Source: a virus. From it: 64,000 bases of DNA. Under the pieces are notes generated by a model. It was not told the origin of the DNA and did no database searches. It saw nothing but the letters and a program-made list of their open reading frames with translations. Positions 6,644-25,873 of this stretch are shown piece after piece; within the stretch, counting starts at the first letter, position 1, and every line of letters begins with the position of its first letter. The position numbers and the translations under genes were made by a program. The stretch lies in IMG/VR virus record IMGVR_UViG_3300035232_000745; one strand, written 5' to 3'.

Positions 6644-6831
6644 TGGAAATCGCAGGTGAACAACCAGTAAGAATGCCAAAATTTTTTAGATTATTAGCAA
6701 AAGGCTTAGTTGCTCTTGGAATGTTCTTATGGGCATTTGGTGAGTCAGCAGGTAGAGCAAGAGCTGCAAGTGAATTATATCGTCAAGGATATGTAGAAGA
6801 AGCAAGAAGATTAATGTTGGAGAGTAAATAA
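6643..6831 (+). CDS. Small hypothetical protein with one hydrophobic segment
   Basis: TAATG coupling on both sides; [17 protein letters not shown]. Confidence 0.65.
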
Positions 6832-7052
6832 TGACTGGTGATATAGCAACAATGGGCGCATTAATTGGCGCAGGGTTAGCAACATTTGGTATGGGTGGCG
6901 CAGCCATCGCAGTAGGAATGATTGTTGGTAGTGTACTTAAAGTAATGCCTAAGAAGCCGGATACTGGTACAATGTTTGTAGGAGTCGCATTTGCAGAAGC
7001 ATTAGGAATCTTTGCATTCTTAGTAGCATTATTATTAATGTTTGCGATCTAA
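6831..7052 (+). CDS. atpE: F0 ATP synthase subunit c homolog with altered polar loop
   Basis: IGAGLA...[10 protein letters not shown] helix 1 and [25 protein letters not shown] helix 2, with the proton-binding Glu. Confidence 0.93.
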
Positions 7053-7431: not shown

Positions 7432-7860
7432 ATGAAAACACTTTATTTTTATTTAGCAGTCTTCGCCGCAGTATTTACAGTGAGCGCAGCAAACGCAGAC
7501 GTAACAATCGAAATGTTAAACAAGCGCGACGATGGCGCTAAGATGGTTTACTCACAAGATATTACACGTATCGAAGTGGGTGAGATTATCACATGGATAC
7601 CAACATCAAAAGGTCATAACGTAGAATTTATTGCAGGACCAGACGGATGGAAGTTGCCTAAGAAATCAAAATTAAATAAAGTAGTTGAGATGCAGTTCAA
7701 TACACCTGGTGTATATTTGTATCAATGTTCACCACATAAAACAATGGGCATGATTGCTATTGTCGTTGTAGGTGATGGCGGAGATGGTTTATCTGTTCCA
7801 GGTAAAAAGATTAAAGGCAAGTCAAAGAAAAGACTTAAAGAAATAATGGCTGACCTATGA
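7432..7860 (+). CDS. paz: Pseudoazurin (type-1 blue copper protein), secreted
   Basis: Signal peptide, MLNK..., GHNVEF, and YQCSPH...GM supplying the His/Cys/His/Met Cu ligands. Confidence 0.9.
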   Translation: MKTLYFYLAVFAAVFTVSAANADVTIEMLNKRDDGAKMVYSQDITRIEVGEIITWIPTSKGHNVEFIAGPDGWKLPKKSKLNKVVEMQFNTPGVYLYQCSPHKTMGMIAIVVVGDGGDGLSVPGKKIKGKSKKRLKEIMADL

Positions 7861-16562: not shown

Positions 16563-17231
16563 ATGGTAGTAGATCTATTTTTAGTCTATCAATTTATAAG
16601 ACGTTTAGCTACACCATTTAATAAATGGGAAGCACATAAACTCGGCATCATTGATGATAAGGGTAATGTCTTAATTAAATCAAAAGAATTTACTAACTCT
16701 CGTCAGAGAAAGGCGTGGGGTATATTTGATAGAATGATAGCAAATCTAAAGAAACTCCTAGCTAAAGTGCCTGGTGGTAGTTCTAGATTTGCTACATACG
16801 CAGCTGCGTTATTCCTCATTAAAGAATATAAAGTGTTCACAGATGAATCAACTCTTACTGAAGACATAAGTGATGAACAACTACAAGAATCTATGGAATT
16901 ATTTTCTAGTAGGTATAACCATTATACTGTGTTAGCTGAAAATGTCAACGAAAAGTTGAAAAAGAGTGATGATATGGGTGCTTGGATAGACGACTTTCAA
17001 GACTCAGACGCTCCTCAGTTTAAAGGTAAATCAAAAGAGAAAAAACGTAAGATGGCAATTGCTGCAAAGCTAAGTGCTATGGATGAAGAACCAGTTAATA
17101 ATGTAGGTGGTGGTAATATCGCCGGAATGGATGGTGGCCATATGTCTAAAGCAGGACAAAAGAAATGGACGTCAAAGAATAGTTCTTCAAAAAATAAAAG
17201 ACTAAGAGACATTATTGGAGATAAAACATGA
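16563..17231 (+). CDS. Conserved T4-like hypothetical protein (61.1-like N-terminus)
   Basis: DLFLVYQFIRRLATPF.KW.A.KLGIID.KG. Confidence 0.6.
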   Translation: MVVDLFLVYQFIRRLATPFNKWEAHKLGIIDDKGNVLIKSKEFTNSRQRKAWGIFDRMIANLKKLLAKVPGGSSRFATYAAALFLIKEYKVFTDESTLTEDISDEQLQESMELFSSRYNHYTVLAENVNEKLKKSDDMGAWIDDFQDSDAPQFKGKSKEKKRKMAIAAKLSAMDEEPVNNVGGGNIAGMDGGHMSKAGQKKWTSKNSSSKNKRLRDIIGDKT

Positions 17232-18076
17232 TTACGTTAGAACAATTCAGTGCAATGATTCCTTCAAATAAAAATCCTGAAGCTTGGTATGAAGCAGCAG
17301 TTCCTATGTTTGAAAAATATGAAATCAATACAAACAATCGTATCGCTGGCTTCATGGCTCAGTGTGCGCATGAGTCATTAGACTTTACCCGTTTAGTAGA
17401 AAATCTTAATTATTCAGAAAAAGCATTAAACTCAGTGTTTGGTCGTTACTTTGGAAAGGGTAAAAGAAATGCAAAAGACTACGCTAGAAACCAAGAAAAA
17501 ATTGCAAACTACGTCTATCAAGATGAGTTTAGGTCCAAACGAGGAGCCTTGGGAAACGTTAATCCCGGCGATGGCTGGCTCTTTAGGGGTCGAGGTATCA
17601 AGCAGCTTACAGGCAGAAATAATTACACACAATTCGCAAATACAGTAGATATGACAGCCGAAGAAGCGGCTGAGTATGTTTCAACGCCTAAGGGCGCTAT
17701 TGAGTCTGCTTGTTGGTTTTGGTCTACAAATAAGTTAGAAAAATGGGCAGATAAAGGCGATAATAAAGGGTTAACTAAAAAAATTAATGGCGGTACTATT
17801 GGTTTAGATGACCGTAATCGTCGTTGGGATGAAGCATTAGCAATCCTTGGCGGTAAAGCACCAGCCCCCAAGAAAACATCTACAAATGCAGTACGCACTC
17901 TACGTAAAGGTATGCAAGGTGATGATGTTAAAAAGATGCAAAAGGCTATTGGCGTAACAGCTGATGGTGATTTTGGATTTGGAACTCTTACTGCCGTAAA
18001 GAAATGGCAAAAGATGAACGGTTTAACTGCAGATGGTATTGTTGGACCAGCAACTCAAGCTAAAATGTTTAGTTAG
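17228..18076 (+). CDS. Endolysin: GH19 domain plus C-terminal peptidoglycan-binding domain
   Basis: FMAQCAHES, ENLNYS, FRGRGIKQLTGR.NY, INGG; then ADGDFG...ADGIVGP. Confidence 0.92.
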   Translation: MITLEQFSAMIPSNKNPEAWYEAAVPMFEKYEINTNNRIAGFMAQCAHESLDFTRLVENLNYSEKALNSVFGRYFGKGKRNAKDYARNQEKIANYVYQDEFRSKRGALGNVNPGDGWLFRGRGIKQLTGRNNYTQFANTVDMTAEEAAEYVSTPKGAIESACWFWSTNKLEKWADKGDNKGLTKKINGGTIGLDDRNRRWDEALAILGGKAPAPKKTSTNAVRTLRKGMQGDDVKKMQKAIGVTADGDFGFGTLTAVKKWQKMNGLTADGIVGPATQAKMFS

Positions 18077-18114: not shown

Positions 18115-18321
18115 ATGTCATTAGAAAAAATTATTGCAGCTGCAATCGAAGGCGATGCAGTTGAAGTCAATAACACGTTCAGCGAAGAAATTAGCAATCG
18201 TATCGCTTTGGCTTTAGAAGAAAAATATAAAAAAGCTATGGAAGCAAAAGCTGACGACGAAGACGAAGATGATGAAGACGAAGATGAAGATGATGATGAC
18301 GACGAGGATGACGACGAGTAA
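18115..18321 (+). CDS. 67: Prohead core protein gp67-like
   Basis: Short helical N-terminus (IIAAAIEGDAV) plus a D/E tail, as in T4 gp67. Confidence 0.6.
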   Translation: MSLEKIIAAAIEGDAVEVNNTFSEEISNRIALALEEKYKKAMEAKADDEDEDDEDEDEDDDDDEDDDE

Positions 18322-18338: not shown

Positions 18339-18863
18339 ATGCCATCATTCTTATATTTAGGCATTATAATCATGGCAATGGGTGGAGGCGGTGCAGTCTA
18401 CTACAAATCCACCCAAGCCAAAATTGTAGAACTTGTACAATATAATGCCACATTGACAGCACAAGTAGATCAGATTGCTCAAGTTAATGAAAAGAACTTA
18501 GCAACAATTGCTGACATGCAAGCAAACTTTGAACGTCAAAGAGAGCAATATGATGAGTTGCAAAAATCATTCAGCGAAATTAACGCACAGAAAAATCAAT
18601 TGCAAAAACGCTTAGGTGACCACGATTTAGGAGCATTAGCTGCTGCTAAGCCTACATTAGTAGAAAGGGTCGTTAACGGAGCTTCTAAGAAAGCTTTTAG
18701 ATGTTTTGAATTGGAATCAGGAGCTGAACTAACAGATAATGAAAGGAAAGCTAAAAATGCAAAAGCGTTTAATAGCGAGTGTCCTTGGGTTTACGATGAT
18801 CTTATCGCTAGCGGCGTGCTCATCAAATCCGATAGTGGAACCACCGCCGAAAATAATAACTGA
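18339..18863 (+). CDS. i-spanin (Rz-like)
   Basis: N-terminal TM, long coiled coil, overlapping lipoprotein gene. Confidence 0.75.
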   Translation: MPSFLYLGIIIMAMGGGGAVYYKSTQAKIVELVQYNATLTAQVDQIAQVNEKNLATIADMQANFERQREQYDELQKSFSEINAQKNQLQKRLGDHDLGALAAAKPTLVERVVNGASKKAFRCFELESGAELTDNERKAKNAKAFNSECPWVYDDLIASGVLIKSDSGTTAENNN

Positions 18864-19119
18864 AACAGAATACGTTAAACCATCTAAACCAATTGTTCCT
18901 AATCCTCCTCAATTAACTATGAGAGAAATAGAATTTATAATTGTAACTCCAGAAAATGTAGATGAAGTATTCGCAAAACTAAAATCTGAAGATAAGGCAA
19001 TATTTGGTTTAACGGATAAAGGTTATGGAGATATAGCTTTGAATCTTGCAGATTTAAGAGCATACATTCAACAACAAAAGAAAATCATAGGCATATACGA
19101 ATCTCAGTATGACCAGTAA
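18757..19119 (+). CDS. o-spanin (Rz1-like lipoprotein)
   Basis: LSLAAC lipobox, Pro-rich linker, overlap with the 3' end of the i-spanin. Confidence 0.78.
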   Translation: MQKRLIASVLGFTMILSLAACSSNPIVEPPPKIITETEYVKPSKPIVPNPPQLTMREIEFIIVTPENVDEVFAKLKSEDKAIFGLTDKGYGDIALNLADLRAYIQQQKKIIGIYESQYDQ

Positions 19120-19220
19120 GAATAGCAGTTATGCTATAAAAAAGTCTATTTTGTTGAACCAACCAGCCCAATATTCATAAATATAGATATATCATTTCTA
19201 GTGTGATTATATTATAATCA

Positions 19221-19255
19221 TGGAGTTCGCCACTAGCCTCCGTTATCAAAAGGCA
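19221..19255 (+). ncRNA. Candidate class-I preQ1-like riboswitch pseudoknot
   Basis: P1 UGGAG/CUCCG, 12-nt loop UUCGCCACUAGC, tail UUAUCAAAA, P2 GCC/GGC; manual alignment only. Confidence 0.45.
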
Positions 19256-19271
19256 TTAAAGGAATAATATA

Positions 19272-19766
19272 TTGTCAAAAGAACAAACTAATTGGGAAAC
19301 AGATATACGCCTAATACAAAGTGATATCAAACAAATCCAAAAGTTCTTTAACAAGGTTGAATCATCAATGGAACTTATGGTCGACCTTAGTAAAAACGTT
19401 GCTGTCCAGTCAGAAGTAATCGCTTTTACAAAAGAAAAGTTAGAAGAAATTGAACGTACGGTTGACGAAACTAGACGTAATGAAGATTTACGTTTACAAG
19501 TATTGAGCGATAGGTTAGAAGAATACAGACGATCGTCTCGTGGAGACCATGAAAAACTTGCGCAGCACAACGCTGAAAAACGAGCTATGAGTAATAAAGA
19601 AATACTTGAAAAGCTTGAAGTAATGGAACGTGGTTTGCATTCTCGTATCAACGATCAGAATAAAAAAGTTAATGCCCTAGAAAATTGGAAATACTATATG
19701 ATGGGTATTGGCGGGGTAATCGTTCTTCTTGTCGCGCGAATTAATTGGCCATATCTTTTTAATTAA
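19272..19766 (+). CDS. Coiled-coil protein with C-terminal TM (holin-like candidate), TTG start
   Basis: AAGGA RBS; C-terminal hydrophobic helix; follows the spanins. Confidence 0.5.
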   Translation: MSKEQTNWETDIRLIQSDIKQIQKFFNKVESSMELMVDLSKNVAVQSEVIAFTKEKLEEIERTVDETRRNEDLRLQVLSDRLEEYRRSSRGDHEKLAQHNAEKRAMSNKEILEKLEVMERGLHSRINDQNKKVNALENWKYYMMGIGGVIVLLVARINWPYLFN

Positions 19767-22974: not shown

Positions 22975-24672
22975 ATGAGAAAATACAAAAAATTCTATTG
23001 GCTAAATGATGACTCCAAGACATTTTTGTCGCGCGGTTATCTAGAAGAAAAAGAAAAGCCGCAAGACCGTATCCGTTTCATTGCTGATAAAGCTGAATGG
23101 TACCTTAAGGATATGGCAAAAACAAAAGCAGGTAAAGCTTCTTATGACGGCTTTTCTGATAAATTTTATGACTACATGAGTCGTGGTTTTTATTCCCTAG
23201 CATCCCCTATTTGGGCAAACTATGGTAAAGAACGTGGGTTGCCAGTATCATGTTTTGGATCGTACATCGATGATAGCATGTCAGCAATCTTATTCGGCCA
23301 TGCAGAAAATGGCATGTTGATGAAAAATGGTGGTGGTACATCAGGTTATTTTGGCGCAATCAGACACCGTGGAGCTCCTATCCGAGACTCAGGTGAATCT
23401 TCAGGTTCTGTGCACTTCATGCAGATGTACGATACTTTGGCTTCAGTCGTATCACAAGGTTCAGTACGTCGTGGTTTCTTTGCTGCATATCAAGACATTG
23501 AACACCCAGACGCTGACGAGTTTCTAGACATTGGCACAGAAGGTAATCCTATTCAAGGGTTAACAACTGGCATCAATGTTAGTAACAAATTCATTGATGA
23601 AATGAAAGCTGGAGATCCAGACAAACGTCGTCTATGGGCAAAGGTACTACAACGTCGTTCTGAAATTGGTTTCCCTTATATTCTATTTTCAGATAACGTA
23701 AACGATGGTCGACCGCAAGTATATAAAGATAAGGATATGAGAGTACACGCTTCAAATATGTGTGCTGAAATTGCATTACCATCTTCACACGAGGAAACGT
23801 TTACATGCGTATTGTCTTCTCTTAATGTTTTACATTGGGATGAAATCAAAGAAACAGATGCGATTGAAACATTGACTATGTTCCTTGATACGGTATGCGA
23901 AGAGTTTGTTCGTAAAACAGCTGGTCAAATCTATATGAAACGTGCTCGTGATTTTGCTATGAAACACCGTGCCCTTGGTGCTGGTATTTTAGGATGGCAT
24001 TCTCATCTACAATCTAAAATGATTTCCTTTGAGTCAAAAGAAGCATCTCAGTTAAACCTTGAGATTGCTAAAACAATGCAAGAACGTTCGTATGAAGCGT
24101 CTCGTCAAATGGCTAAAACATTAGGTGAACCAGAATTACTTGAAGGTTATGGAATGCGTAATACCACAACAATGGCTATTGCTCCTACTAAATCATCAAG
24201 CTTTATCCTTGGTCAAGTATCACAATCTATTGAGCCAGAATTCTCTAACGCTTATGTTAAAGATCTAGCGAAAATGAAAGTTACTATTCGCAATCCATAT
24301 TTAAAAGAATTGTTAATTAGTAAAGAACAAGATACGCCAGATGTATGGGAATCAATTAAAAACCGTGACGGATCTGTTCAGCATCTTGAGTTCTTAACTG
24401 AAGACGAACGTGCAGTATTTAAAACTTTCTCAGAGATTAGTCCAAATACTATTATTGACCAAGCTGCAATTCGTCAACAGTACGTTGATCAAAGTCAAAG
24501 CTTAAACTTAATGTTAGATCCAGATATGACTGTCAAAGATATTAATGCCCTATATTTGTACGCAAACGAGATGGGTGTTAAGAGTTTATATTATGCTTAT
24601 TCTATGTCAGCAGCACAATCTCTTACGAGGAAACGTGTTATGTCAGCAGATTGCGCAGCGTGTGAAGCATAA
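22975..24672 (+). CDS. nrdA: Ribonucleotide reductase alpha subunit (no ATP cone)
   Basis: [25 protein letters not shown]-terminal CAAC. Confidence 0.96.
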
Positions 24673-24679
24673 AAATAAT

Positions 24680-25873
24680 ATGGAATATATGAAATACTTT
24701 GAAAACACGATTGACGAATACAAATCAGACGGAAGATATAGAGTCTTTAACGATATATTGAGAGAGCGGGGGAATTTCCCTCGCTCAATATGGTATGGAA
24801 AATATGCTCCAAAGAATATAGTTAACTGGTGCTCAAATGATTATTTGGGCATGGGTCAAAATCAGTATGTTATTGATGCTATGCACACAGCTCTGGATCA
24901 AACCGGTGCTGGTTCTGGAGGAACAAGAAATATTGGTGGAACATCTCACTATCACGTAACACTTGAAAGAGAATTAGCATCTTTACATAAAACAGAGTCT
25001 TCATTACTTTTCTCTAGTGCTTATGTAGCAAATGAGTGGACTTTAATAGCCTTATCTAGAATCATACCAAATATCTGTTTTATATCAGATAACAAAAATC
25101 ATGCTTCTTTAATCATGGGAATAAAACATTCTCGTAGTGAAAAAAGAGTATTTAAACATAACGATATGAACGATTTAGAAGCAACGTTAAAGAAAGTCGT
25201 TAAACAAAAATTAAATCCTGTAATCGTATTCGAGTCCGTGTATAGTATGGACGGTGATATATCTCCTATCAAAGATATTGTTGCGTTGGCGCATAAATAT
25301 AACGCGTTAACTTATATTGATGAAGTTCACGCAGTAGGTTTATATGGTGAGACTGGTGGCGGATATTGTGAACAATTAAACATGTACTCTGACGATATAG
25401 ATATAATTAACGGAACGCTTGGTAAAGCTTTCGGTGTACAAGGAGGTTATATTGCAGCTAATAAAACGATTGTTGATGCTATTAGATCAGTCGCAAGCGG
25501 ATTTATATTCACAACATCCATCTCACCTGTTTTGTGTGCTGGGGCTATCGCCTCTATAAATTACGTAAAAGATCACAAATCACTTAGAGAAAAACATCAA
25601 TCAAAAACTAAGCAGCTTAAGAAAATGCTTAGAAGAAGGAATATACCAGTGCATGAAAATGCATGTACTCATATTGTTCCTATAATGGTAAACGACGCGT
25701 TTAAATGCAAAGAAGCAAGCGATCGGTTACTTAACGAATACGGCATATATATTCAAGCAATCAACTCACCAACTGTAGAAGCTGGAACAGAAAGATTGCG
25801 CATTGCTCCGACTCCATTCCACACAGATAACATGATGATGGAGTTGGTATCAGCTCTAAGGGATGTATTATAA
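24680..25873 (+). CDS. hemA: 5-aminolevulinate synthase (Shemin pathway)
   Basis: [49 protein letters not shown]. Confidence 0.95.

Follow-up and report, generated by a model that had tools for sequence, protein, structure and literature searches.

We analysed a 64,000-nt stretch of viral DNA (hereafter the window; IMG/VR record IMGVR_UViG_3300035232_000745) from a T4-like marine phage, in which genes for an endolysin, a spanin pair and a 164-aa protein are followed by those for a primase, ThyX and ribonucleotide reductase. Upstream of the 164-aa open reading frame (ORF), a holin candidate, lies a genuine 35-base pseudoknot element at 19221–19255. The positions assigned to its parts in an original prediction, made from the letters alone, all agreed with the sequence. 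The locus has the following features:

17228–18076, + strand: endolysin, GH19-like with a peptidoglycan-binding domain (phrog_181, E 2e-68; PF01471)
18339–19119, + strand: overlapping Rz/Rz1-like spanin pair (phrog_739, E 6.5e-16; phrog_812, E 1e-10)
19176–19183, + strand: late-promoter-like box of T4 type, CATAAATA, recognized by sequence
19188–19204, + strand: 5' leader strand of a predicted anti-Shine–Dalgarno (anti-SD) helix enclosing the aptamer, pairing with 19253–19271 in the minimum free energy (MFE) fold
19198–19203, + strand: CUAGUG, recognized by sequence
19204–19220, + strand: AU-rich hairpin adjoining P1 (central pair probabilities 0.82–0.84), in the nearest clade only
19221–19242, + strand: P1 stem and its 12-nt loop, from covariation and column counts
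19221–19225 with 19238–19242, + strand: the P1 strands, with floor pair G19225-C19238
19226–19237, + strand: 12-nt loop, with U19226, the P2 5' strand (19228–19231) and the candidate specificity base C19237
19243–19251, + strand: A-rich L3, in which A19251 is the equivalent of A30
19252–19255, + strand: P2 3' strand GGCA, recognized by sequence
19259–19263, + strand: Shine–Dalgarno (SD) sequence AAGGA, starting 4 nt past the last pseudoknot base, with an 8-nt spacer to the TTG
19272–19766, + strand: 164-aa coiled-coil protein opened by a TTG start at 19272, XhlA-type holin candidate with one C-terminal hydrophobic helix

The motif's gene adjoins the endolysin and spanin genes, which bears out the original proposal of a lysis-cluster context rather than a queuosine one. 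The encoded protein was predicted to form one long helix (pLDDT 87, pTM 0.32), and it combines a membrane helix with a holin-like position in the lysis cassette, after the endolysin and spanins. PHROG matches of its homologues were weak (hemolysin in 4/22, holin in 2/22), and its Atlas neighbours were DUF7201 or hypothetical proteins. Significant homology to a holin family was not found in Pfam, by fold or to the XhlA-like protein of locus L033, and isolate phages gave no match; judged by its sequence and position the protein is a reasonable holin candidate, no more. Distant homologues of the ORF (L016–L024, L026–L032) lack the motif, which the gene can therefore do without. An identical ORF is present on a 222.6-kb contig, ERZ27246614:k141_284203.

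A short acidic gp67-like prohead-core gene lies at 18115–18321, after the endolysin and before the spanins. The window also carries auxiliary genes of four kinds (at 14–352, about 6830–7050, 7432–7860 and 24545–25873; also L635). One is the end of a ferredoxin-dependent bilin reductase gene, preceded immediately outside the window by heme oxygenase; the others encode an ATP-synthase c-like peptide, a protein that binds copper, and an aminotransferase of class I/II resembling 5-aminolevulinate synthase.

Conservation and covariation of the pseudoknot

By sequence comparison, the element is a member of an uncatalogued family of RNAs. In homologues of the ORF at 19272 its 33-nt core stayed nearly constant while the flanks drifted, down to 49% protein identity, and a pattern search returned 60 viral stretches with the motif, ahead of four unrelated ORF families. 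Once the outer P1 pairs were freed, stems with full compensation turned up in contigs from viruses and metagenomes: among 225 matches to a loop-plus-tail pattern with the four outer P1 pairs unspecified, 203 had a stem of at least 4 pairs, compared with 8 of about 100 matches to an over-loose control pattern, of a kind that yields mostly chance matches. Together with the strong covariation of P1, these stems dismiss the original worry that so short an element could be a chance match.

A first count gave 56 two-sided cells in 76 sequences. In homologous leaders, P1 accumulated 119 compensatory cells over 98 distinct sequences, with four pairs covarying and the closing G-C present in 98/98, as the original prediction would have it. 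The compensatory count for the whole structure was reached by 0 of 500 shuffles and all slid registers scored much lower, although these counts are not probabilities because the sequences are related. P2 was complementary in nearly all sequences, with weaker support than P1. Its variants kept pairing: C10-G32 became U·G in 20 sequences, and of the 24 sequences with G8, 22 had C34, most of them belonging to one subtype. Two-sided changes were absent from the three core P2 pairs, even with P2 freed in the pattern search.

Column counts in the same 98 sequences gave G5-C18, U6 and A30 in 98/98, C17 in 97/98 and the last three L3 adenines in 98/98, an invariance of the pocket bases that the search patterns and models in part impose and that is shared by related sequences; L2 was left free in one pattern search and P2 in another, which limits this search bias and does not remove it. 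Positions 7, 8, 10, 12, 13 and 16 were variable, and the base preceding the specificity C was G in 95/98 sequences, C in 2 and A in 1.

Some loci depart from the consensus. A natural copy at L660:1487–1525 (genome G034) carries U in place of the specificity C, has a weakened P1, and is either decayed or altered in specificity. Near the rpoB–rpoC boundary of L657 (G567), around 1480–1516, a pseudoknot-like element combines a similar P1 and tail with a different loop and matches the model weakly (E 0.018). In the leaders of XhlA-like genes at L034, L058 and L071, several short AGGCAC-like repeats flank the motif.

Occurrence in SAR116 and marine phages

Sequence comparison further indicates that the motif, taken in the original prediction for a phage element, is mainly a chromosomal element of SAR116, carried too by several phage lineages. 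Model R1 placed it in 31 of 83 Puniceispirillaceae (SAR116) genomes, with 1–4 copies each, and model R2 found a second subtype across the order. True matches in the genome scan fell in SAR116-labelled assemblies save for two bins, one with the match on a phage contig and one labelled only Pseudomonadota. A strict pattern run over 401 alphaproteobacterial genomes hit only the SAR116 seed genome, plus two stemless matches. The phage carriers are T4-like, podovirus-like and temperate marine phages, and the motif's distribution suggests that the window's phage infects SAR116. The family thus spans a clade of bacteria abundant in the ocean and three or more types of phage.

Copies lie in sense orientation in mRNA leaders. 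Downstream we found about 90 distinct peptides of 44–96 aa, most of which have a basic patch and a single membrane helix at the C terminus, as well as small unannotated proteins, a ParA/MinD-like ATPase, three families of phage membrane proteins and, for some phage copies, holin-like genes. One copy precedes pal, between tolB and cpoB, in a complete SAR116 genome of 2,753,527 bp, and another a cI-like repressor gene divergent from a Cro-like gene. None of the roughly 170 distinct ORFs directly behind the motif was a que, yhhQ or dpd gene; in one phage lineage queD is the second to fourth gene after it, 0.4–1.5 kb downstream on the same strand. Fronting envelope, holin-like and repressor genes, the family would appear to mark a non-queuosine regulon. 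As it is common to SAR116 and phages and stands ahead of membrane and envelope genes, host and phage may both be sensing one small-molecule signal.

Four loci (L349, L401, L415 and L425) carry two copies 103 nt apart, the first opening an 82-aa ORF that runs in frame through the second into the same 47-aa membrane peptide. Some phage copies (L192:3270–3308, L200, L422 and L381) have no start codon within about 100 nt, those of L192 and L200 coming after a late box; these are possibly free decoy RNAs. A type III antitoxin RNA was considered and rejected: the window has a single copy, elsewhere there are at most two in tandem, membrane-protein genes lie downstream, and no pseudoknot array ahead of a ribonuclease toxin gene was found.

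Alternatively, the motif could be an operator, a site at which a SAR116 RNA-binding protein or small RNA runs an envelope regulon and which phages have copied. The very mixed downstream genes (small membrane peptides, pal, the ParA/MinD-like ATPase, unannotated proteins and the repressor) and the narrow host range would fit such a site, and copies without a nearby ORF could serve as its decoys. However, in model-based searches the invariant bases correspond to a nucleobase pocket and positions 7, 8, 10, 12, 13 and 16 are variable, and the family is similar to the preQ1 family RF00522; we consider an operator unlikely.

Leader and expression platform

The late-like box that the original prediction had picked out belongs to a pattern seen across the motif's leaders: TAAATA occurred within 90 nt upstream at 59 of 66 low-GC, mostly T4-like, motif loci, compared with 4 of 106 others, so that by sequence such copies appear to lie behind a late promoter. 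The window contains ATAAATA 24 times on the + strand and 4 times on the − strand. We infer a transcript start near 19188.

From there, the leader strand 19188–19204 is predicted to pair with 19253–19271 and to hide the ribosome-binding site (RBS) in a helix that, in the computed fold, would cover the end of P2, the SD and the spacer. The helix was predicted in most close relatives folded individually, and opening the RBS cost a mean of 6.1 kcal/mol, compared with 4.0 kcal/mol for shuffled leaders. An RNAalifold consensus of the relatives did not recover this helix, nor was covariation found in it, and a mimicked bound state gave a predicted RBS relief of only about 1 kcal/mol. The AU-rich hairpin inside the helix (19204–19220) differs in loop length among relatives.

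The original prediction had placed the switch elsewhere, in a competing helix formed when CUAGUG (19198–19203) invades the loop at CACUAG. The complementarity exists, and in isolation this helix plus the AU hairpin reaches −7.9 kcal/mol, compared with −6.7 kcal/mol for P1 plus the hairpin. With the helix forced, however, the best fold of the leader was −9.7 rather than −12.6 kcal/mol, and its pairing probability in the ensemble was about 0.02. CUAGUG/CACUAG complementarity was present in only 8 of 168 leaders and missing from close relatives such as L002 and L012; a loop complement of at least 6 nt occurred in 13 of 168 leaders (several of the 13 near-identical), against about 4% in shuffles. 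We rejected the helix because it lacks conservation and because about a dozen phage copies, which start 4 nt behind the late box, have no strand upstream to form it; its acting as the switch is highly improbable.

These copies that begin right behind the late box also bear on whether a ligand is involved at all. A ligand-free pseudoknot could protect the 5' end of the mRNA or tune translation constitutively, as would be consistent with that position, with start-codon spacings from 7 to over 70 nt, and with a quintuple-base motif that ligand-free stability elements likewise build from G5, U6, C18 and L3 adenines (PMC11625349). Such a role leaves unexplained both the L2 of 6–7 nt, with its invariant A15 and near-invariant C17, and the burial of the SD in most host copies, and we consider it unlikely, slightly more so than an operator.

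The probable explanation, and the one we favour, is a riboswitch that acts on translation, folds as an H-type pseudoknot of the class-I preQ1 kind, is native to SAR116 and is also present in several marine phage lineages. Comparison establishes that the pseudoknot is conserved, that the pocket bases are retained and that the copies lie in sense within mRNA leaders; an SD-in-P2 geometry akin to that of preQ1-I type III and the occurrence of tandem copies also speak for a riboswitch of preQ1 type. A free base with a guanine face would pair with C19237, U19226 and A19251 would read the minor-groove edge of the bound base, and binding would lock P2. In most host copies the start codon lies 7–9 nt past AAAAGG and the P2 3' strand is the SD itself, so that locking P2 would bury the SD and turn translation OFF. 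In the window the SD, just past P2, is predicted to be covered by the anti-SD strand; the inner end of that strand competes with P2, and binding may therefore loosen the strand and possibly turn translation ON. Because this helix lacks consensus support and the predicted relief is only about 1 kcal/mol, the direction leans only slightly towards ON: given a riboswitch, ON has about an even chance, OFF by steric block is possible and less probable, and no effect is unlikely. Synthesis of the holin-like protein, and hence the timing of lysis, would in this way be tied to ligand level.

Candidate ligands and known riboswitches

SAR116 genomes encode tgt in 75/83 cases and queF in 21/83, and queC in 0/83; a complete genome has a queA–tgt–queG run, and neither queD nor yhhQ was found in four SAR116 genomes. 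As these bacteria keep tgt without queC, preQ1 must be scavenged, and by the criteria of PMC10570037 they are preQ1/preQ0 salvagers, for which the molecule would therefore report on the surroundings. In a check of the kind that the original prediction had suggested, no que gene was found in the window or in the partial contigs of close relatives. One motif-bearing large-phage contig carries folE, queD and queE, and queD in a related phage lineage is preceded by its own, different pseudoknot-like leader. This second leader occurs ahead of queD at L361, L407, L397, L396, L039, L353, L661 and L665, in phages that mostly carry the motif too.

In the nearest metagenome-assembled genome, contig C91 holds a complete 7-deazaguanine cluster that at first looked linked to the window's phage. 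It belongs to another phage, because the helicase gene shares 66% DNA identity and the motif was found on 0 of 30 QueC-bearing phage contigs. This other T4-like phage (L552 and L553; contigs C91 and C174 of G001) has queE, queD, folE, queC and a long queF, together with a 266-aa ORF of no annotation inside the cluster; a yhhQ-like transporter lies on a separate phage-like contig.

The ligand is most likely preQ1/preQ0 or another 7-deazaguanine, at a little below an even chance; guanine, a modified guanine or another guanine-faced base comes next among ligands and is doubtful, as is, hardly less so, the absence of any small ligand. If ligand binding is real, the family is either a new preQ1-I type or a receptor for a new ligand, and provides a metabolite cue for phage lysis timing. 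A bolder reading, which we put forward tentatively and think improbable, is that scavenged or phage-made 7-deazaguanine serves SAR116 as a signal, beyond its role as a tRNA precursor, through a preQ1-I-type envelope regulon (pal and many small membrane peptides) that lytic and temperate phages have rewired for lysis and repressor levels.

The class-I preQ1-type fold first proposed is borne out by the conserved pocket bases, the P1 covariation and the matching register. That register is the one of the B. subtilis and T. tengcongensis aptamers, including the UUC/UCG swap at positions 6–8 (PMC10639078), and the preQ1-I contact bases defined in PMC11625349 are kept in the family. With preQ1-I type II (RF00522; B. 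subtilis queC and T. tengcongensis) it shares a 5-bp P1 closed by G5-C18, U6, a 12-nt loop, a P2 of four steps in matching register that includes C8·A34, the last loop C and an A-rich L3. It differs from type II in a GCC/GGC P2 (C11-G31, not G11-C31), and from preQ1-I types I–III in the G before its specificity C, where those have A or U; UC (type I) or AC (types II and III) precedes their P1 3' strand (PMC11625349). The preQ1 riboswitches described in a review stand ahead of queuosine synthesis or salvage genes (PMC11625349). Rfam scans gave no hit for the window at gathering score, nor for the region or the bare motif, the last at E up to 10. The relative L643, which shares the B. subtilis P1 and tail start, had PreQ1 (RF00522) as its best Rfam match, at 19 bits (E 0.025) and below the 39-bit gathering score. 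Because the family departs from the UC/AC rule, the Rfam threshold and the gene context alike, it is not filed as a member of RF00522; judging from its sequences, it most likely works like one. A literature search by sequence and keyword, with the supplement of the phage structured-RNA catalogue PMC10690425 outside its scope, found no description of the motif.

With preQ1-I type III of E. coli (PMC10622847) the family shares the UU above P1, and in SAR116 host copies, likewise, the AAGG tail is P2 strand and SD at once. It differs in an L2 of 6–7 nt rather than 3, a loop that is not pyrimidine-only, its occurrence in SAR116 and phages, and an SD that in the window's phage lies outside P2. The c-di-GMP-I riboswitch of C. 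difficile prophages is located in a lysis module. Phages are reported to carry riboswitches very seldom, with examples in C. difficile prophages (c-di-GMP-I) and in two cyanophages (glutamine aptamers; PMC5473149). The family resembles these in being a probable host-type riboswitch carried by phages; they have another fold and ligand, and amount to four examples, compared with dozens of phage copies here.
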